From Escherichia coli (lineage in GTDB: Bacteria > Pseudomonadota > Gammaproteobacteria > Enterobacterales > Enterobacteriaceae): DNA of 64,000 nucleotides. This document shows positions 5,643 to 29,103 of the stretch, one piece after another (positions within the stretch are counted from its first letter, which is position 1; each line of letters begins with the position of its first letter). Made by a program: the position numbers and the translations under genes. The notes beneath the pieces were generated by a model. That model did no database searches, was not told where the DNA came from, and worked only from the letters and a program-made list of their open reading frames with translations. The stretch lies in the NCBI RefSeq assembly GCF_013315695.1, contig NZ_CP054353.1; one strand, written 5' to 3'.

Positions 5643-6830
5643 ATGGCGGACAAAAAGCTTGATACTCAACTGGTGAATGCAGGACGCAGCAAAAAATACA
5701 CTCTCGGCGCGGTAAATAGCGTGATTCAGCGCGCTTCTTCGCTGGTCTTTGACAGTGTGGCAGCCAAAAAGCACGCGACGCGCAATCGCGCCAATGGCGA
5801 GTTGTTCTATGGACGGCGCGGAACGTTAACCCATTTTTCCTTACAACAAGCGATGTGTGAACTGGAAGGTGGCGCAGGCTGCGTGCTGTTCCCCTGCGGG
5901 GCGGCGGCGGTTGCTAATTCTATTCTTGCTTTTGTCGAACAGGGCGATCATGTGTTGATGACCAACACCGCCTATGAACCGAGTCAGGATTTCTGTAGCA
6001 AAATCCTCAGCAAACTGGGCGTAACGACATCGTGGTTTGATCCGCTGATTGGCGCAGATATCGTTAAACATGTGCAGCCAAACACTAAAATCGTGTTTCT
6101 GGAATCCCCAGGCTCCATCACCATGGAAGTCCACGACGTTCCGGCGATTGTTGCCGCCGTGCGCAGTGTGGTGCCGGATGCCATCATTATGATCGATAAC
6201 ACCTGGGCGGCCGGTGTGCTGTTTAAGGCGCTGGATTTTGGCATCGATGTTTCCATTCAGGCCGCTACCAAATATCTGGTTGGGCATTCAGATGCGATGA
6301 TTGGTACTGCCGTATGCAATGCCCGTTGCTGGGAGCAGCTGCGGGAGAATGCCTATCTGATGGGCCAGATGGTCGATGCCGATACCGCTTATATAACCAG
6401 CCGTGGCCTGCGCACTTTGGGTGTTCGCCTGCGTCAACATCATGAAAGCAGTCTGAAAGTGGCTGAGTGGCTGGCAGAACATCCGCAAGTAGCGCGAGTT
6501 AACCACCCTGCTCTGCCTGGCAGTAAAGGCCACGAATTCTGGAAACGAGACTTTACAGGTAGCAGCGGGCTATTTTCCTTTGTGCTTAAGAAAAAACTCA
6601 ATGATGAAGAGCTGGCGAACTATCTGGATAACTTCAGTTTATTCAGCATGGCCTACTCGTGGGGCGGGTATGAATCGTTGATCCTGGCAAATCAACCAGA
6701 ACATATCGCCGCCATTCGTCCACAAGGCGAGATCGATTTTAGCGGGACCTTGATTCGCCTGCATATTGGTCTGGAAGATGTCGACGATCTGATTGCCGAT
6801 CTGGACGCCGGTTTTGCGCGAATTGTATAA
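5643..6830 (+). CDS. metC: cystathionine beta-lyase
   Basis: 395 aa from the internal ATG ([15 protein letters not shown]...); track ORF is N-extended. Confidence 0.9.
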
Positions 6831-6969
6831 CATTGCCACTTTTGGACAATTTTGCAGACATTTTATTGTGAAAAGTCTTAAATTGTTGCGTCCGGGATCA
6901 AGGCGTCCCGGACGATTCAGGAGTACAATAGGCAGATAAAGGCTTAAACGCTGTTCCACAGGAAAGTCC

Positions 6970-7629
6970 ATGGCTGTTATTCAAGATATCATCGCTGCGC
7001 TCTGGCAACACGACTTTGCCGCGCTGGCGGATCCTCATATTGTTAGCGTTGTTTACTTTGTCATGTTTGCCACGCTGTTTTTAGAAAACGGCCTGCTGCC
7101 CGCCTCATTTTTGCCAGGCGACAGCTTGTTGATATTGGCTGGCGCATTGATTGCCCAGGGGGTTATGGATTTTCTGCCTACGATTGCGATTCTGACCGCC
7201 GCAGCAAGTCTGGGCTGCTGGCTAAGTTATATTCAGGGGCGCTGGTTAGGAAATACCAAAACGGTGAAAGGCTGGCTGGCACAGCTTCCTGCTAAATATC
7301 ACCAGCGCGCCACCTGCATGTTTGACCGCCACGGTCTGCTGGCGCTGCTGGCTGGACGTTTTCTTGCATTTGTCCGTACGCTGCTGCCAACCATGGCAGG
7401 AATTTCCGGTTTGCCAAACCGCCGTTTCCAGTTTTTCAACTGGTTAAGCGGATTGCTGTGGGTCAGCGTGGTAACCAGTTTCGGCTATGCCTTAAGTATG
7501 ATTCCGTTCGTTAAACGCCATGAAAATCAGGTAATGACGTTCCTGATGATCCTGCCAATTGCCTTGTTAACCGCTGGCTTGTTAGGCACGCTGTTTGTGG
7601 TGATTAAAAAAAAATACTGTAACGCCTGA
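6970..7629 (+). CDS. yghB: DedA-family inner membrane protein
   Basis: 219 aa, multiple TM helices. Confidence 0.85.
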
Positions 7630-19454: not shown

Positions 19455-20264
19455 ATGAAAGCACTTCGTCCTCTGACGGCATCGCTTATGCTGTTAACCA
19501 GTTGTTTATTAATATCTAATACCACACTGGCAAAAATAACATTAAAACTGAGTCATAATCAGGATAAAAGCCATGCTGTCCATAAAGCATTAAGCTATTT
19601 AGCGGATAAAACCAAAGAGTATTCTAATGGTGAATTAGTTATTCGCATTTACCCAAATGCAACATTAGGTAATGAGCGTGAATCACTGGAATTAATGAAC
19701 TCCGGTGCATTACAGATGGTTAAGGTTAATGCCGCATCACTAGAATCATTTGCTCCAGATTACAGCCTTTTCAGTCTGCCGTTCTTATTCCGCGACCGTG
19801 ATCACTATTATCGTGTTCTGCAAAGTGATTTAGGTAAAAAAATACTTAATTCATCAGAAAGCAAAGGTTTTGTTGGTATTACGTACTATGACGGCGGTGC
19901 GAGAAGTTTTTATTCCAATAAACCGATTACAAAACCTGAAGATTTAGCGGGAATGAAAATCAGGGTTCAACAAAGCCCCAGCGCCATTGCAATGATGAAA
20001 GCACTCGGTGGTGTCGCTACCCCGATGGCGCAAGGCGAACTCTACACCGCACTTCAGCAAGGTGTGGTTGATGGCGGAGAGAACAATACCGTTGTCTATT
20101 CCGATATGCGTCACGCCGAAGTCGCAAAAGTCTATTCACGTGATGAACACACCATGGTACCTGATGTGTTAATTATCAGCACCGACGTGTTGAATAAACT
20201 TGGTGATAAAGAGCGCACGGCATTATTAAAAGCAGCCGGTGATGCTGCCAACTTACTGATTTAG
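19455..20264 (+). pseudogene. TRAP transporter solute-binding protein (DctP family), 3'-truncated by IS1
   Basis: Signal peptide plus DctP-like sequence for 261 codons; last 8 codons (GDAANLLI*) are encoded by the IS1 terminal repeat. Confidence 0.75.
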
Positions 20265-20292
20265 TGTATGATGGTGTTTTTGAGGTGCTCCA

Positions 20293-20568
20293 GTGGCTTC
20301 TGTTTCTATCAGCTGTCCCTCCTGTTCAGCTACTGACGGGGTGGTGCGTAACGGCAAAAGCACCGCCGGACATCAGCGCTATCTCTGCTCTCACTGCCGT
20401 AAAACATGGCAACTGCAGTTCACTTACACCGCTTCTCAACCCGGTACGCACCAGAAAATCATTGATATGGCCATGAATGGCGTTGGATGCCGGGCAACAG
20501 CCCGCATTATGGGCGTTGGCCTCAACACGATTTTACGTCACTTAAAAAACTCAGGCCGCAGTCGGTAA
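20293..20568 (+). CDS. insA: IS1 InsA
   Basis: 91 aa; zinc-finger/HTH protein typical of IS1. Confidence 0.9.
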
Positions 20569-20990
20569 CCTCGCGCATACAGCCGGGCAGTGACGTCATC
20601 GTCTGCGCGGAAATGGACGAACAGTGGGGCTATGTCGGGGCTAAATCGCGCCAGCGCTGGCTGTTTTACGCGTATGACAGGCTCCGGAAGACGGTTGTTG
20701 CGCACGTATTCGGTGAACGCACTATGGCGACGCTGGGGCGTCTTATGAGCCTGCTGTCACCCTTTGACGTGGTGATATGGATGACGGATGGCTGGCCGCT
20801 GTATGAATCCCGCCTGAAGGGAAAGCTGCACGTAATCAGCAAGCGATATACGCAGCGAATTGAGCGGCATAACCTGAATCTGAGGCAGCACCTGGCACGG
20901 CTGGGACGGAAGTCGCTGTCGTTCTCAAAATCGGTGGAGCTGCATGACAAAGTCATCGGGCATTATCTGAACATAAAACACTATCAATAA
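20487..20990 (+). CDS. insB: IS1 InsB frame (transposase made by an InsAB' frameshift)
   Basis: 167-aa ORF overlapping insA in the -1 frame. Confidence 0.9.
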
Positions 20991-21004
20991 GTTGGAGTCA
21001 TTAC

Positions 21005-21046
21005 CGATTATGTCTACAGCAAAGAGTTGTATATCAAGGCACATTG
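21005..21046 (+). pseudogene. ygiS: orphaned 3' end of ygiS (DYVYSKELYIKAH*), displaced by the IS1-bounded inversion
   Basis: First 9 bp gattatgtc are the reverse complement of gacataatc at 26938..26946, which abuts the truncated ygiS; reading on yields ten codons and a stop, restoring the expected 535-aa length. Confidence 0.6.
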
Positions 21047-21184
21047 ATGTCTTTATCGCCGTCGGAGCACGTCCGGCGGCGCTATTCACGCTGATCTCCT
21101 GTGACTCGACGCGGCAGATAATGTAGTATCTCCGGCAATATTGCCCCTTTGAAGGCTGGCGAATAAGTTGAGGAATCAGAATTA

Positions 21185-23443
21185 ATGAGCGATATGGCAG
21201 AGCGCCTTGCGCTACATGAATTTACGGAAAACGCCTACTTAAACTACTCCATGTACGTGATCATGGACCGTGCGTTGCCGTTTATTGGTGATGGTCTGAA
21301 ACCCGTTCAGCGGCGCATTGTGTATGCGATGTCTGAACTGGGTCTGAATGCCAGTGCCAAATTTAAAAAATCGGCCCGTACCGTCGGTGACGTACTGGGT
21401 AAATACCATCCGCACGGCGATAGTGCCTGTTATGAAGCGATGGTCCTGATGGCGCAGCCGTTCTCTTACCGTTATCCGCTGGTTGATGGTCAGGGGAACT
21501 GGGGCGCGCCGGACGATCCGAAATCGTTCGCGGCAATGCGTTACACCGAATCCCGGTTATCGAAATATTCTGAGTTGCTATTAAGCGAGCTTGGACAGGG
21601 GACGGCTGACTGGGTGCCAAACTTCGACGGCACCTTACAGGAGCCGAAAATGCTGCCAGCCCGCCTGCCGAACATTTTGCTTAACGGCACCACCGGTATT
21701 GCCGTCGGCATGGCGACCGATATTCCACCGCATAACCTGCGTGAAGTGGCTCAGGCGGCAATCGCATTAATCGACCAGCCGAAAACCACGCTCGATCAGC
21801 TGCTGGATATCGTGCAGGGGCCGGATTATCCGACTGAAGCGGAAATTATCACTTCGCGCGCCGAGATTCGTAAAATCTACGAGAACGGACGTGGTTCAGT
21901 GCGTATGCGCGCGGTTTGGAAGAAAGAAGATGGCGCGGTGGTTATTAGCGCATTGCCGCATCAGGTTTCAGGTGCGCGCGTACTGGAGCAAATTGCTGCG
22001 CAAATGCGCAACAAAAAGCTGCCGATGGTTGACGATCTGCGCGATGAATCTGACCACGAGAACCCGACCCGTCTGGTGATTGTGCCGCGTTCCAACCGCG
22101 TGGATATGGATCAGGTGATGAACCACCTCTTTGCTACCACCGATCTGGAAAAGAGCTATCGCATTAACCTCAATATGATCGGTCTGGATGGTCGTCCGGC
22201 GGTGAAAAACCTGCTGGAAATCCTCTCCGAATGGCTGGTGTTCCGCCGCGATACCGTGCGCCGCCGACTGAATTATCGTCTGGAGAAAGTCCTCAAGCGC
22301 CTGCATATCCTCGAAGGTTTGCTGGTGGCGTTTCTCAATATCGACGAAGTGATTGAGATCATTCGTAATGAAGATGAACCGAAACCGGCGCTGATGTCGC
22401 GGTTTGGCCTTACTGAAACCCAGGCGGAAGCGATCCTCGAACTGAAACTGCGTCATCTTGCCAAACTGGAAGAGATGAAGATTCGCGGTGAGCAGAGTGA
22501 GCTGGAAAAAGAGCGCGACCAGTTGCAGGGCATTTTGGCTTCCGAGCGTAAAATGAATAACCTGCTGAAGAAAGAACTGCAGGCAGACGCGCAAGCCTAC
22601 GGTGACGAACGTCGTTCGCCGTTGCAGGAACGCGAAGAAGCGAAAGCGATGAGCGAGCACGACATGCTGCCGTCTGAACCTGTCACCATTGTGCTGTCGC
22701 AGATGGGCTGGGTACGCAGCGCTAAAGGCCATGATATCGACGCGCCGGGCCTGAATTATAAAGCGGGCGATAGCTTCAAAGCGGCGGTGAAAGGTAAGAG
22801 CAACCAACCGGTAGTGTTTGTTGATTCCACCGGTCGTAGCTATGCCATCGACCCGATTACGCTGCCGTCGGCGCGTGGTCAGGGCGAACCGCTCACCGGC
22901 AAATTAACGTTGCCGCCTGGAGCGACCGTTGACCATATGCTGATGGAAAGCGACGATCAGAAACTGCTGATGGCTTCCGATGCGGGTTACGGTTTCGTCT
23001 GCACCTTTAACGATTTGGTGGCGCGTAACCGTGCAGGTAAGGCTTTGATCACCTTACCGGAAAATGCCCATGTTATGCCGCCGGTGGTGATTGAAGATGC
23101 TTCCGATATGCTGCTGGCAATCACTCAGGCAGGCCGTATGTTGATGTTCCCGGTAAGCGATCTGCCGCAGCTGTCGAAGGGCAAAGGCAACAAGATTATC
23201 AACATTCCATCGGCAGAAGCCGCGCGTGGAGAAGATGGTCTGGCGCAACTGTACGTTCTGCCGCCGCAAAGCACGCTGACCATTCATGTTGGGAAACGCA
23301 AAATTAAACTGCGTCCGGAAGAGCTACAGAAAGTCACTGGCGAACGTGGACGCCGCGGTACGTTGATGCGCGGTTTGCAGCGTATCGATCGTGTTGAGAT
23401 CGACTCTCCTCGCCGTGCCAGCAGCGGTGATAGCGAAGAGTAA
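21185..23443 (+). CDS. parC: DNA topoisomerase IV subunit A
   Basis: 752 aa; GyrA/ParC family. Confidence 0.95.
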
Positions 23444-23676
23444 TATGCCGGGGAGGGCGCTGTTTCCTCCCGCTTGCAAGGAACGCCGGATGAAACGTTA
23501 AGTCGTCATCCGGCAGCGTATTCTACCCCCGGAAACGATAAAAATTCCCTTGAAACCGTTGTTTATTCATGCGTTGCGATTAACAATACGCTTTTCCAGA
23601 GAGCGGCTTTTAACAATGCCCTAACCTGATTTCAGGTGACGTACAATGCCAGTCTCTCAGACCTTCAGAGGGTGTT

Positions 23677-24414
23677 ATGCTATATATCTTTCGTCTTATT
23701 ATTACCGTGATTTACAGCATCTTAGTCTGTGTATTCGGCTCCATTTACTGCCTTTTCAGCCCGCGTAACCCGAAACATGTGGCCACCTTTGGGCATATGT
23801 TTGGTCGTCTTGCACCGCTGTTCGGCCTGAAAGTTGAGTGCCGCAAACCTGCGGATGCTGAAAGCTACGGCAATGCTATCTATATCGCTAACCACCAGAA
23901 CAACTATGACATGGTCACAGCATCGAACATTGTGCAACCGCCGACGGTGACGGTAGGTAAAAAGAGCTTGCTGTGGATCCCCTTCTTCGGGCAGTTGTAC
24001 TGGTTAACCGGCAACTTATTGATCGACAGAAACAATCGCACTAAAGCTCACGGCACTATTGCGGAAGTCGTGAATCACTTCAAAAAACGCCGTATTTCCA
24101 TCTGGATGTTCCCGGAAGGAACCCGCAGCCGTGGTCGCGGCCTGCTGCCGTTCAAGACCGGGGCATTTCACGCGGCAATTGCGGCGGGCGTCCCGATTAT
24201 TCCCGTGTGCGTCTCTACAACTTCGAATAAGATTAATCTTAATCGACTGCACAACGGTCTGGTGATTGTCGAAATGCTGCCGCCAATTGACGTCAGTCAG
24301 TATGGCAAAGATCAGGTTCGTGAGCTGGCTGCCCATTGTCGTTCGATAATGGAACAAAAAATCGCCGAGCTCGATAAAGAAGTCGCAGAGCGCGAAGCCG
24401 CCGGAAAAGTTTAA
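23677..24414 (+). CDS. plsC: 1-acyl-sn-glycerol-3-phosphate acyltransferase
   Basis: 245 aa; HX4D acyltransferase motif (NHQNNYD). Confidence 0.9.
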   Translation: MLYIFRLIITVIYSILVCVFGSIYCLFSPRNPKHVATFGHMFGRLAPLFGLKVECRKPADAESYGNAIYIANHQNNYDMVTASNIVQPPTVTVGKKSLLWIPFFGQLYWLTGNLLIDRNNRTKAHGTIAEVVNHFKKRRISIWMFPEGTRSRGRGLLPFKTGAFHAAIAAGVPIIPVCVSTTSNKINLNRLHNGLVIVEMLPPIDVSQYGKDQVRELAAHCRSIMEQKIAELDKEVAEREAAGKV

Positions 24415-24488
24415 GTCGGCAATCTGTATTTTTGCGGGGAACACTTTCCTGCACGGTATTACTTTAGCCAGTTTTACATGGAGCAAAT

Positions 24489-25901
24489 ATGTCACTCAGT
24501 CGGCGTCAGTTCATTCAGGCATCGGGGATTGCACTTTGTGCAGGCGCTGTTCCCCTGAAGGCCAGCGCAGCCGGGCAACAGCAACCGCTACCCGTTCCGC
24601 CGCTGCTTGAATCTCGCCGTGGGCAACCGCTGTTTATGACTGTACAACGTGCGCACTGGTCATTTACGCCAGGGACACGCGCGTCGGTTTGGGGAATCAA
24701 TGGTCGTTACCTGGGGCCGACTATCCGCGTCTGGAAGGGCGACGATGTTAAGCTTATTTACAGCAACCGCCTGACAGAAAATGTCTCAATGACGGTGGCC
24801 GGGCTACAGGTACCAGGCCCGCTGATGGGCGGTCCGGCACGGATGATGTCGCCAAACGCTGACTGGGCACCCGTACTGCCCATTCGCCAGAACGCAGCTA
24901 CTCTGTGGTATCACGCCAATACTCCCAACCGCACGGCTCAGCAGGTCTATAACGGCCTTGCCGGAATGTGGCTGGTGGAAGATGAAGTCAGCAAGTCGCT
25001 GCCTATCCCCAACCATTATGGTGTGGATGATTTTCCGGTCATTATCCAGGATAAACGGCTGGATAACTTTGGTACGCCAGAATACAACGAACCGGGAAGC
25101 GGCGGCTTTGTTGGTGATACGCTGCTGGTTAACGGTGTGCAAAGCCCGTACGTTGAAGTCTCGCGTGGCTGGGTGCGCTTGCGACTGCTGAACGCGTCGA
25201 ACTCTCGTCGCTATCAACTACAGATGAGCGATGGTCGCCCGTTACATGTGATTTCTGGCGATCAGGGATTCCTGCCTGCTCCTGTATCGGTGAAGCAACT
25301 TTCGCTGGCACCGGGCGAGCGCCGCGAGATTCTGGTGGATATGAGCAACGGTGATGAAGTGTCGATCACCTGTGGTGAAGCGGCGAGCATTGTTGATCGT
25401 ATTCGCGGCTTCTTTGAGCCATCCAGTATTCTGGTGTCTACGCTGGTGCTAACGCTGCGCCCAACCGGCCTTCTGCCGCTGGTCACAGACAGTCTTCCGA
25501 TGCGCTTGCTGCCAACTGAAATCATGGCCGGTTCGCCGATTCGTAGTCGCGATATCAGTCTGGGTGATGACCCGGGTATTAATGGACAACTGTGGGACGT
25601 CAACCGTATTGATGTCACCGCGCAGCAAGGAACGTGGGAACGCTGGACGGTACGCGCGGACGAGCCGCAAGCGTTCCATATTGAAGGCGTGATGTTCCAG
25701 ATCCGTAACGTGAATGGCGCGATGCCGTTCCCGGAAGACAGAGGCTGGAAAGATACCGTTTGGGTTGACGGACAAGTGGAGCTGCTGGTTTATTTCGGTC
25801 AGCCTTCCTGGGCGCACTTCCCGTTCTACTTCAACAGTCAGACGCTGGAAATGGCGGACCGTGGCTCGATTGGGCAACTGTTGGTCAATCCGGTACCGTA
25901 A
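24489..25901 (+). CDS. ftsP: cell-division multicopper-oxidase-like protein (SufI)
   Basis: 470 aa; Tat signal peptide (SRRQFI). Confidence 0.9.
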   Translation: MSLSRRQFIQASGIALCAGAVPLKASAAGQQQPLPVPPLLESRRGQPLFMTVQRAHWSFTPGTRASVWGINGRYLGPTIRVWKGDDVKLIYSNRLTENVSMTVAGLQVPGPLMGGPARMMSPNADWAPVLPIRQNAATLWYHANTPNRTAQQVYNGLAGMWLVEDEVSKSLPIPNHYGVDDFPVIIQDKRLDNFGTPEYNEPGSGGFVGDTLLVNGVQSPYVEVSRGWVRLRLLNASNSRRYQLQMSDGRPLHVISGDQGFLPAPVSVKQLSLAPGERREILVDMSNGDEVSITCGEAASIVDRIRGFFEPSSILVSTLVLTLRPTGLLPLVTDSLPMRLLPTEIMAGSPIRSRDISLGDDPGINGQLWDVNRIDVTAQQGTWERWTVRADEPQAFHIEGVMFQIRNVNGAMPFPEDRGWKDTVWVDGQVELLVYFGQPSWAHFPFYFNSQTLEMADRGSIGQLLVNPVP

Positions 25902-25911
25902 TGGACCAATT

Positions 25912-25940
25912 CAATGCCCCACAGAGTGGTGGGGCATTGA
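25912..25940. terminator. hairpin after ftsP, possibly bidirectional with the dctM remnant
   Basis: Perfect stem aatgcccca...tggggcatt. Confidence 0.4.
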
Positions 25941-25971
25941 AAATTACTCAGTATGCAGTCTTCACTGTGTA

Positions 25972-26170
25972 TCAGGTCGAAAATAATCCTGGCAGCATCA
26001 GACTAAGCTGCGGGAAATAACAAATAATTGCCATTACTACAAACAATGCCAGAAACATCGGCAGTAATGGTTTTATTGCCCTGTCGATACTGACCTTACC
26101 AATGCTGCACCCCACAAACAGAATGGTGCCGACAGGTGGTGTGCAAAGGCCAATGGTTAAGTTGAAAACG
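25972..26170 (-). pseudogene. C-terminal remnant of a TRAP transporter large permease (DctM-like), cut by IS1
   Basis: Minus-strand translation from the IS1 junction: VFNLTIGLCTPPVGTILFVGCSIGKVSIDRAIKPLLPMFLALFVVMAIICYFPQLSLMLPGLFST*; no start codon. Confidence 0.6.
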
Positions 26171-26184
26171 GTAATGACTCCAAC

Positions 26185-26688
26185 TTATTGATAGTGTTTT
26201 ATGTTCAGATAATGCCCGATGACTTTGTCATGCAGCTCCACCGATTTTGAGAACGACAGCGACTTCCGTCCCAGCCGTGCCAGGTGCTGCCTCAGATTCA
26301 GGTTATGCCGCTCAATTCGCTGCGTATATCGCTTGCTGATTACGTGCAGCTTTCCCTTCAGGCGGGATTCATACAGCGGCCAGCCATCCGTCATCCATAT
26401 CACCACGTCAAAGGGTGACAGCAGGCTCATAAGACGCCCCAGCGTCGCCATAGTGCGTTCACCGAATACGTGCGCAACAACCGTCTTCCGGAGCCTGTCA
26501 TACGCGTAAAACAGCCAGCGCTGGCGCGATTTAGCCCCGACATAGCCCCACTGTTCGTCCATTTCCGCGCAGACGATGACGTCACTGCCCGGCTGTATGC
26601 GCGAGGTTACCGACTGCGGCCTGAGTTTTTTAAGTGACGTAAAATCGTGTTGAGGCCAACGCCCATAATGCGGGCTGTTGCCCGGCAT
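26185..26688 (-). CDS. insB: IS1 InsB frame
   Basis: Protein identical to the copy-1 InsB. Confidence 0.9.
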
Positions 26689-26882
26689 CCAACGCCATTC
26701 ATGGCCATATCAATGATTTTCTGGTGCGTACCGGGTTGAGAAGCGGTGTAAGTGAACTGCAGTTGCCATGTTTTACGGCAGTGAGAGCAGAGATAGCGCT
26801 GATGTCCGGCGGTGCTTTTGCCGTTACGCACCACCCCGTCAGTAGCTGAACAGGAGGGACAGCTGATAGAAACAGAAGCCAC
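26607..26882 (-). CDS. insA: IS1 InsA
   Basis: Protein identical to the copy-1 InsA. Confidence 0.9.
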
Positions 26883-26910
26883 TGGAGCACCTCAAAAACA
26901 CCATCATACA

Positions 26911-28512
26911 CTAAATCAGTAAGTTGGCAGCATCACCGACATAATCCTGGGGATTATGCAGCGGAAAACCGCCAACGTAGGGTTTAAGCAGTTTGATTAA
27001 CGGCTGATAATAGACAGGAATGAGCGGTGCCTGCTGGTTGATGATCACTTCTGCCTGCTGATACAACGCATTACGCTTTGTTGCATCAGCCGTTTGTGCC
27101 GCCTGGTTTAGTAAGGCGTCATACTGCGCGTTTTTCCAGTGGCCGACATTTTCCTCGCTATCGCTCTTAAGCGTGTTCAGAAAGGTGGAGGCATCATTGT
27201 ACGTCGCATCCCACGACTGCCGAGACAACATGAAATCACCGGCTCGTCGGGCATCAAGATAAGTTTTCCACTCCATTGTGCGCAGCGTCACCTGTGCACC
27301 CAGCCATTTTTTCCATTCGGAAGACAACGCTATCGCGGTCTTTTCATGCAGATCGTACTTGTTGTAGAACAGCTCAAAGCGAAGCGGATGAGAGGCGTCG
27401 TATCCCGCCTGTTTCAACAAGGCTTTTGCCATCGCGACGCGCTCACTCAGCGGCTTTTGCAGTTCATCGAACGTCGTCGCGCTAAAGCCTTTTACCTCTG
27501 GCGGCGTCAGCGTAGTTGCGGGCGTTCTCAACCCCAGTACCTTTTGCGCAATAAGCTGTCGATCAACCGTAAGATATAGCGCCCGACGCACCCGCACATC
27601 GTTAAATGGCGGTTTCTCAAGGTTGAAGTTGTAATATTCGCTGTTCAGACGCGGAATAATTCGTAGCTCGCCAGGCAGTGATTTTTCAATGGCGGGAATT
27701 TGCTGCGCCGGAACCCAGGTGAGATCGACCTCTCCCGCGCGATAGCGGTTATAGCCGGTGACCGAATTATCCAGCGCCAGATACTCAACCTGTTGCAATA
27801 CTGTATGTTGCGCATCGCGGTACTTTGGATTTTTGCGTGCAGTAATCTTTTCGTTAACTACCCACTGATCAAGCACAAAGGCACCGTTGTAAACCATGTT
27901 CTCTGGCTTACTCCAGCTATCGCCATGTTTAGCGATGACATGATGAGGAACCGGGAACAGCGTCGGCCAGGCGAGCATCGTCGTGAACCAAGGAACTGGC
28001 TGCTCAAGCGTAACTTCAAGAGTACGATCATCCATCGCTTTGACACCCAGCGATGTAACATCTGCTTTACCCGCAACAATAGCCGCGGCATTGTTAATGT
28101 GCGCCTGTGCCAGATAGCCAGCAAAAGGGCTTGCCGTTTTCGGGTCAACCGCACGTTGCCAGCCGAGGACAAAATCCTCTGCTGTCAGAGGCTGACCGTC
28201 TGACCACTGCAAACCGCTACGCAGATGGAAAATATAGCGCTTGCCGCCGTCCAGTATCTCCCAGCGTTCAGCCTGAGCGGGCTGCACCTGGCCTTCACCG
28301 TCCATCCATACCAGACCTTCAAACAGATCCAGCACAATCTGCGCGGCAGTATTCTCCTCTACCTTTTGCGGGTCGAGCGTGCCTGGGTCGCTATGATTGT
28401 TGTAACGAAAAACTTGTTGCGGGGCGAGCGGTGTGTTGGCGGGAACGTCAGCAGCGTAGAGAGGAGCCGCACTTACCAGGCTGACCAGCCATAATAAATT
28501 TCGCGTATACAT
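26911..28512 (-). CDS. ygiS: periplasmic oligopeptide-type ABC substrate-binding protein with an IS1-encoded C-terminal tail
   Basis: 533 aa; signal peptide; SBP family 5; last 8 aa GDAANLLI come from the IS1 end (native part 26938..28512). Confidence 0.75.
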   Translation of the reverse strand: MYTRNLLWLVSLVSAAPLYAADVPANTPLAPQQVFRYNNHSDPGTLDPQKVEENTAAQIVLDLFEGLVWMDGEGQVQPAQAERWEILDGGKRYIFHLRSGLQWSDGQPLTAEDFVLGWQRAVDPKTASPFAGYLAQAHINNAAAIVAGKADVTSLGVKAMDDRTLEVTLEQPVPWFTTMLAWPTLFPVPHHVIAKHGDSWSKPENMVYNGAFVLDQWVVNEKITARKNPKYRDAQHTVLQQVEYLALDNSVTGYNRYRAGEVDLTWVPAQQIPAIEKSLPGELRIIPRLNSEYYNFNLEKPPFNDVRVRRALYLTVDRQLIAQKVLGLRTPATTLTPPEVKGFSATTFDELQKPLSERVAMAKALLKQAGYDASHPLRFELFYNKYDLHEKTAIALSSEWKKWLGAQVTLRTMEWKTYLDARRAGDFMLSRQSWDATYNDASTFLNTLKSDSEENVGHWKNAQYDALLNQAAQTADATKRNALYQQAEVIINQQAPLIPVYYQPLIKLLKPYVGGFPLHNPQDYVGDAANLLI

Positions 28513-28620
28513 GGTATTCCTTACCGGAGAAATTATAAGCCCGACAACAATACGCCTGTGGCATTGTTAGCTCAAACTTATCGCGAGTGATTTGGCTCAC
28601 ACTCCGGTAAAGATTCCCCA

Positions 28621-29103
28621 TCACGCTAACGGTACATAAACATCCGTTTCCAGTCGCTGCTCTGTCATCCCTTCGGCAAGATTGGTGTAGTGAAACAGGA
28701 TCGGGGCTTTGCGCATTTTTTCGCCGCTTGCCGGAAGCCAGTGGCGAATGATGCCCCATATCGTGTGTGAAATATCGTCCAGCTCGCCAACATGGCGGGC
28801 CACAGCATAACGTCCACCGGTAAGTTCACCATTACTTACGCCATAACGATTATCGGGGATCGGTTCGCTAACGCTGCCGCAGATATCAAAGCGAAACGCT
28901 TCTGGTGCGGTGGTGGCAGGGTCGTCCCAGGCGACGCCAAAAGTCTGGCTTTGGTTAACAGGAGAAAGCCCCGTCTCTTTACGCCACATGATAAATTTCG
29001 CCACGCTGTAGTTGAGCAACTCAGGGCTACAGCGGTGCGGCAACATCGCCACAGGGATTGAGGGGAAATCGATAATATTTACATCCAGTGTCAGGTTTGT
29101 CAT
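28621..29103 (-). CDS. ygiV: GyrI-like small-molecule-binding transcription factor
   Basis: 160 aa. Confidence 0.7.
   Translation of the reverse strand: MTNLTLDVNIIDFPSIPVAMLPHRCSPELLNYSVAKFIMWRKETGLSPVNQSQTFGVAWDDPATTAPEAFRFDICGSVSEPIPDNRYGVSNGELTGGRYAVARHVGELDDISHTIWGIIRHWLPASGEKMRKAPILFHYTNLAEGMTEQRLETDVYVPLA

Follow-up and report, generated by a model that had tools for sequence, protein, structure and literature searches.

IS1 insertion in ygiS and an IS1-bounded inversion strand the end of the gene upstream of parC in an Escherichia coli clone

How do the last codons of ygiS come to lie directly upstream of parC, 5.89 kb from the head of the gene and on the opposite strand? An earlier note on this E. 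coli DNA, made from the letters alone, had drawn attention to the stranded tail in the window, by which we mean the whole stretch of 64,000 nucleotides that was analysed. The tail is stranded because the whole of 21006..26169 has been inverted between two inverted copies of IS1, and not because 5.9 kb of DNA was inserted into the gene. Along the window, the order is dehydrogenase genes, a cut TRAP binding-protein gene, IS1 (+), ygiS tail (+), parC (+), plsC (+), ftsP (+), a permease stub (-), IS1 (-), ygiS head (-) and ygiV (-). The features of the locus are the following:

19455..20237, + strand: TRAP-transporter substrate-binding protein gene (DctP family), cut after codon 261 of 327; NCBIfam TRAP_S1/dctP matches, and a native 327-aa gene in SMS-3-5
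19455..20264, + strand: chimeric TRAP binding-protein ORF of 269 aa, which reads into IS1 and ends with GDAANLLI and a stop
20238..21005, + strand: IS1 copy 1, IS1A type, 768 bp, with its left inverted repeat at 20238; from the sequence, an IRL pattern match and NCBIfam transpos_IS1, and IS1A in RefSeq
20293..20568, + strand: insA of IS1 copy 1
20487..20990, + strand: insB of IS1 copy 1
21006..21014, + strand: 9-bp IS1 target-site duplication GATTATGTC at the right end of copy 1, equal to ygiS codons 523-525 (DYV)
21006..21047, + strand: stranded ygiS 3' remnant, consisting of the duplicated DYV, the last ten codons (YSKELYIKAH) and the stop; the same as the native ygiS 3' end
21048..21184, + strand: native ygiS-parC intergenic region, intact (100% identity of the rejoined junction to intact genomes), with a hairpin with a 10-bp stem at about 21056..21080 (from folding)
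21006..26169: inverted segment of 5,164 bp, holding the ygiS tail, parC, plsC, ftsP and the TRAP large-permease stub; from gene order and strand relative to SMS-3-5
21185..23443, + strand: parC, in the inverted segment
23677..24414, + strand: plsC, in the inverted segment
24489..25901, + strand: ftsP, in the inverted segment
25972..26169, - strand: TRAP large-permease (DctM) stub, of which the last 65 codons and the stop are left and the first 369 codons are deleted; from its translation and the native tail in SMS-3-5, and a pseudogene in RefSeq
26170..26937, - strand: IS1 copy 2, in inverted orientation, identical to copy 1 at 768 of 768 positions
26938..26946, - strand: second 9-bp target duplication (GATTATGTC on the - strand), at the left end of IS1 copy 2
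26911..28512, - strand: chimeric ygiS ORF of 533 aa, YgiS residues 1-525 followed by the IS1-encoded GDAANLLI; RefSeq WP_001571929.1
26938..28512, - strand: ygiS head, up to NPQDYV

The 42 bases that follow IS1 copy 1 translate on the + strand to DYVYSKELYIKAH and a stop, and the claim that a ygiS tail is stranded upstream of parC was thus borne out. Its location right after the element was also correct, while the coordinates given for it, 21005..21046, lie one base too far to the left of the true 21006..21047. The alignment that had been proposed as a check takes the reverse complement, which is the wrong strand for the tail, as the tail is on the + strand. The gene is truncated after codon 525, and its native last 10 residues are exchanged for eight IS1-encoded residues, GDAANLLI, and a stop, as had been read from the sequence. 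When the reverse complement of 26938..28512 is joined to 21015..21047, with one copy of the 9-bp repeat removed, the rejoined gene encodes 535 aa, the length predicted in the earlier note. That note had also named an intact homologue with some other C-terminus as a refutation; the C-terminus of YgiS in SMS-3-5 is identical, and M160T is the single difference between the rejoined protein and SMS-3-5 YgiS. The rejoined YgiS spans the NCBIfam equivalog NF007287, of the OppA-like cluster of SBP_bac_5, from end to end (1-535 of 535; 1281.8 bits, cutoff 1098).

At the DNA level, the rejoined ygiS 3' end, the intergenic region and the parC 5' end are contiguous in many complete E. coli genomes and identical to them at 886 of 886 positions, which rules out a chance similarity of the tail to ygiS. 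At an identity of at least 95%, the rejoined 886-nt junction is contiguous in 4,053 of the 5,426 complete E. coli genomes. The remnant was also considered as a separate small gene, and this was rejected: it has no start codon and sits behind the stop codon of insB. The stranded remnant is not translatable and is dead. It is in frame with the insB of copy 1, with only the insB stop codon between them (HYQ-stop-VGVITDYVYSKELYIKAH-stop; window 20988-21047). Read-through of this stop codon would extend InsB by 18 residues; there is no evidence of read-through.

The two copies of IS1, each with both ends read directly, are exactly 768 bp long, mutually identical throughout and inverted with respect to each other. 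The terminal inverted repeats of the element are imperfect and about 23 bp long (GGTGATGCTGCCAACTTACTGAT and GGTAATGACTCCAACTTATTGAT). In copy 1, 20238 is the first base of the left inverted repeat GGTGATGCTGCCAACTTACTGAT, and the element closes with GTCATTACC at 21005. Both transposase ORFs are matched by NCBIfam NF033558 (transpos_IS1). In the IS1 transposase, the insA and insB' frames are joined by a programmed frameshift, and identical loci in RefSeq are annotated as "IS1A family transposase, programmed frameshift".

Read in the orientation of IS1, the flanks of copy 1 are AAAGCAGCC-IS1-GATTATGTC and those of copy 2 are GATTATGTC-IS1-GTTTTCAAC. The 9-bp sequence GATTATGTC is found once beside each copy, in inverted orientation, so that the target duplication is split between the two copies. 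Target duplications of 8 or 9 bp have been described for IS1 (PMC12428005). On the TRAP side, the flanks AAAGCAGCC (20229-20237) and GTTTTCAAC (26161-26169) do not match and form no duplication, which is what an adjacent deletion would be expected to leave.

In SMS-3-5, the native order is ygiV, ygiS, parC, plsC and ftsP, with no IS1; after ftsP, and on the opposite strand, follow the genes for the TRAP large permease, the small permease, the binding protein and the sugar-acid dehydrogenases. In more than 4,000 E. coli genomes the ygiS-parC junction is contiguous, and compared with these the 5,164-bp segment runs the other way round. The locus is almost certainly an IS1 insertion in ygiS together with an IS1-bounded inversion, by one path or another, and the inversion is a real but ordinary rearrangement. 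GC skew is +0.05 in the inverted segment and -0.02 in the whole window, a difference of only about 2 SD, with positive values in neighbouring windows as well; its direction fits a recent flip and is weak, supportive and indecisive evidence.

Compared with SMS-3-5, 1,842 bp are missing on the TRAP side: codons 262-327 of the binding-protein gene, the whole small permease gene and codons 1-369 of the DctM gene. This deletion inactivated the TRAP transporter that belongs to an island for sugar-acid utilisation; the island holds a GntR regulator, a mannitol-type dehydrogenase, a Zn-dependent alcohol dehydrogenase, an Ldh-family oxidoreductase, the TRAP binding protein and the two permeases. In the window lineage and in SMS-3-5, the island lies between ygiQ and ftsP.

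A structure bounded by repeated elements could be an assembly artefact, formed by wrong contig joins across IS1. Repeats of 768 bp often break or mis-join short-read assemblies, and the draft KE137068.1 does hold IS1 copies of irregular length. However, the arrangement recurs in complete assemblies made independently in the UK, in Australia and by other submitters, and an inverted 9-bp target duplication is a prediction of biology and not of mis-joining. We consider an artefact highly improbable. The same structure is present in 2 of the 5,426 complete RefSeq E. coli genomes, NZ_OZ547117.1 (UK, blood culture) and NZ_LR898874.1 (Australia, rectal swab), each with 2-3 SNPs relative to the window in 24.4 kb, and further complete GenBank assemblies also carry it. 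Public assemblies have the exact chimeric YgiS sequence in 866 blocks and the chimeric TRAP binding protein in 1,171. The flanks of the window are most similar to the SMS-3-5 group of strains. A real and widely sampled clone carries the arrangement as an inherited marker.

If a single resident IS1 is assumed throughout, the structure can be derived as follows. In a first step, an IS1 resident in the TRAP operon would have removed 1,842 bp by adjacent replicative deletion (in cis); such a deletion would leave no target repeats, hence the unmatched old flanks. In a second step, the same IS1 would have entered ygiS, 5 kb away, at the target GATTATGTC, by replicative transposition in trans within the chromosome. 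This single in trans step would create the second, inverted copy of IS1, flip the ygiS tail, parC, plsC, ftsP and the permease stub, and split the 9-bp target between the copies. The order of these events, and whether the inversion took one step or two, is what we infer. Several features expected of the one-step path are present at the locus: two inverted IS copies, an inverted middle, one target repeat per copy, and the old flanks at the other ends. For IS26, He et al. took target repeats that match but lie next to different IS copies to reflect replicative transposition in trans within one molecule, with inversion as its product, and a deletion without target repeats was read as an in cis outcome (PMC4471558). 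The same paper cites Turlan & Chandler 1995 for replicative deletions and intramolecular rearrangements by the IS1 family. In PMC12428005, IS1 within the chromosome moved solely replicatively.

The inversion could also have been formed in two steps. A separate IS1 would then have inserted simply in ygiS, in the opposite orientation to the IS1 of the TRAP operon, and RecA recombination between the two would later have flipped the 5.16 kb. This path yields exactly the observed flanks, and its end product is identical to that of the one-step path: split inverted target repeats are necessary for the latter, yet they are also produced by insertion followed by recombination. In addition, the genome is rich in IS1 (at least 40 places), and relatives in which the same two copies underwent further exchanges indicate that IS1-IS1 exchange is frequent in the lineage. 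On the other hand, the two-step path costs one event more, and no non-inverted ygiS::IS1 intermediate was seen with junction queries, which are the same for both orientations. Junction queries of the 5,426 complete E. coli genomes and exact look-ups of the chimeric proteins in public assemblies, in which similar contexts are collapsed, gave no form other than the inverted one and derivatives rearranged further. As either orientation has identical junction sequences, a flip-flop is compatible with this outcome. Neither the 5,426 complete genomes nor the long contigs read held an ancestor with the TRAP-operon IS1 and an intact ygiS. The identity of the two copies is weak evidence for an origin from a single element, in a comparison that covers these two of at least 40 IS1 places. 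The two-step path is a serious possibility that falls somewhat short of probable; the one-step path, with one resident IS1 throughout, is preferred on parsimony, and only slightly.

Further exchanges were observed in two relatives. In GCA_900448625.1 (UGAA01000001.1, an NCTC strain), copy 1 has undergone an exchange with an IS1 of the ETT2 type III secretion cluster; about 280 kb separate the two junctions. In GCA_046047015.1 (CP164765.1), copy 2 was exchanged with a distant IS1 near tktA or mtlR. Thus, IS1-IS1 exchange is active in this lineage.

In the flipped segment, parC keeps its native upstream intergenic region of 137 bp, with the hairpin just past the ygiS stop; further upstream now lies the right end of IS1, 179 bp before the parC start codon. 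A simple promoter and terminator scan of 20900..21250 found no consensus sites. The quinolone-resistance region of parC is wild type (S80, E84), despite the flip. The MSB1_4I record starts at dnaA and has oriC, between mioC and mnmG, at 5.232 Mb and the locus at 0.76-0.78 Mb. In this genome, ygiS and the outer flanks are co-directional with the fork, on the leading-strand side; the opposite strand carries the inverted genes. Judging from this map position, and with weak support from the GC skew, parC, plsC and ftsP were probably turned head-on to the replication fork. A 5-kb flip that places these three genes head-on would thus be tolerated in an internationally spread clone.

Next, we consider what the exchange of the C-terminus means for YgiS. 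An alignment of the protein with Salmonella OppA (E = 9e-146) begins at residue 21 and runs through its very end, and the AlphaFold2 model of intact YgiS superimposes on OppA (1ola_A) with TM scores of 0.93/0.96 and an rmsd of 1.7 A. In OppA and MppA (PDB 1ola, 1b05, 3tcf, 3o9p), the tail is shared with YgiS, the OppA tail DNIYVKNLYIIKH corresponding to DYVYSKELYIKAH. In contrast to these proteins, YgiS is an orphan paralogue without adjacent permease genes, and the allele in the window is without the terminal strand of the family. Among 131 representatives of the YgiS family, chosen at no more than 50% mutual identity, 113 have K or R at position 528, about 115 have aliphatic or aromatic residues at positions 530 and 532, no sequence stops short of position 533, and all keep the C-terminal element. 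This element, [YP]-[ST]-[KR]-x-aliphatic-x-aliphatic, is absent from the chimera, which has G-D-A-A-N-L-L-I instead: the near-universal K/R528 is replaced by Ala, and the aliphatic 530 by Asn.

The model of intact YgiS (pLDDT 95.2, pTM 0.91) places a turn at 527-529 and the last beta-strand at 531-533, with pLDDT values of 96-98. In the model of the chimera, the fold is kept (overall pLDDT 94.3, pTM 0.90), the pLDDT of residues 521-530 falls from 96 to 82, only one bridge is left of the three-residue strand, and residue 29, near the N-terminus, no longer forms its bridge. We rejected the kept fold as evidence of function, since the alignment dictates the fold in AlphaFold2.

The chimera might nevertheless be a working binding protein, in which the IS1-encoded NLLI replaces the strand ELYI, which it loosely resembles with an offset of one residue. 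AlphaFold2 puts the IS1 tail in roughly the native position, with a pLDDT of 96 at residues 531-533, and the chimera matches NF007287 over 1-526 of 535 with 1258.5 bits, which stays above the cutoff of 1098. Against this stand the local drop in pLDDT, the loss of the strand and the substitutions at K/R528 and 530, and AlphaFold2, being driven by the alignment, is a poor judge of stability. A working chimera appears unlikely to us. Where the earlier note had said that the new tail may or may not preserve function, the range can be narrowed: the replaced tail is predicted to be structural, and the function of chimeric YgiS is probably impaired, because the replaced residues form a conserved, ordered turn and the terminal beta-strand.

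The reported role of YgiS is the import of deoxycholate, with the ygiS mRNA cleaved by MqsR, and this role is contested (PMC6918082). Deletion of ygiS left the susceptibility to negamycin unaffected (PMC8097410). In the window lineage, there is no mqsR or mqsA between ygiV and ygiS (spacer 28512-28621), and the same is true of SMS-3-5. Since mqsR and mqsA are missing at the locus, the published regulatory link between MqsR and ygiS cannot operate here.

Many E. coli have no ygiS at all. The gene is wholly absent from 1,357-1,372 of the 5,426 complete genomes, which is about a quarter. In the ygiS-less genomes, the stretch from ygiV to parC consists of the first 21 nt of ygiS, a single-copy filler of 239 bp, and the last ~36 nt of ygiS (6744-7042 of the stretch taken from NZ_AP022120.1); the filler stands in place of ygiS nucleotides 22 to about 1572. 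NZ_CP148493.1 has a group II intron, with ltrA and beside traG, whose 3' end shares 93.6% identity with bases 18-237 of the filler. The similarity stops directly behind TCAA, and the junction therefore lies at GATTAT^GTC. On the strength of DNA similarity to this one annotated intron, the filler may derive from such an intron; searched against Rfam, it returned no match. In two ygiS-less genomes, NZ_AP022120.1 and one more, no mqsR or mqsA lies between ygiV and parC. The sugar-acid island is absent from both, and ftsP directly adjoins ygiQ.

The ygiS-less allele resembles the allele in the window in that the last ~12 codons of ygiS are stranded directly upstream of parC and the break falls in the same 9 bp. 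It differs in the element involved, the group II intron-like filler, and in having neither IS1 nor an inversion. Within ygiS there is an 8-bp palindrome, CATAATCC-CCA-GGATTATG, whose 3' arm holds both the IS1 target and the filler junction. We estimate the chance of such a coincidence within the 1.6-kb gene at about 1%, for a match that was noticed after the fact; the shared break site may reflect either coincidence or a hotspot. It is unlikely that the loss of YgiS is recurrent and possibly selected, with the palindrome as a hotspot for the entry of mobile elements and with disruption as a route to bile tolerance if YgiS imports deoxycholate and mqsRA is absent. Since ygiS is absent from about a quarter of E. 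coli, stranded tails are common and the gene is dispensable, and its loss here is probably of little consequence. The natural absence of ygiS in about a quarter of E. coli tells more about YgiS than this single allele does.

The two chimeric genes also bear on annotation. The ygiS and TRAP binding-protein genes share the frame in which they enter the left end of IS1; hence both end with GDAANLLI and a stop. RefSeq calls both chimeras intact, as WP_001571926.1 or WP_510002277.1 for the TRAP protein and as an ABC transporter substrate-binding protein, WP_001571929.1, for YgiS; the sole pseudogene flag at the locus is on the TRAP permease stub. The practical lesson is that IS disruptions near the end of a gene escape pseudogene calling.

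All components of this locus are textbook: IS1, a 9-bp duplication, an adjacent deletion and an IS-bounded inversion. A search of the literature found no paper describing a ygiS::IS1 allele. The importance of the case is modest, as a clean natural inversion bounded by IS1 whose history is legible from the flanking 9-mers.

Its closest parallels are known from other systems. In the crl::IS1 allele of an MG1655 stock, which PMC6918082 mentions, a 768-bp IS1 with a 9-bp duplication likewise lies in a non-essential gene whose ORF runs into the end of the element. At ygiS, in contrast, the insertion is only 10 codons before the stop, and the product is nearly full length and is called intact. The duplicative inversion by IS26 in plasmids (PMC4471558) shares with this locus the inverted pair of IS copies, the inverted middle, one target repeat per IS and an adjacent deletion without repeats. 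The rearrangement described here differs in that it is chromosomal, involves IS1 with a target of 9 bp and not 8 bp, has flipped the essential genes parC and plsC, and has a one-step origin that is putative.
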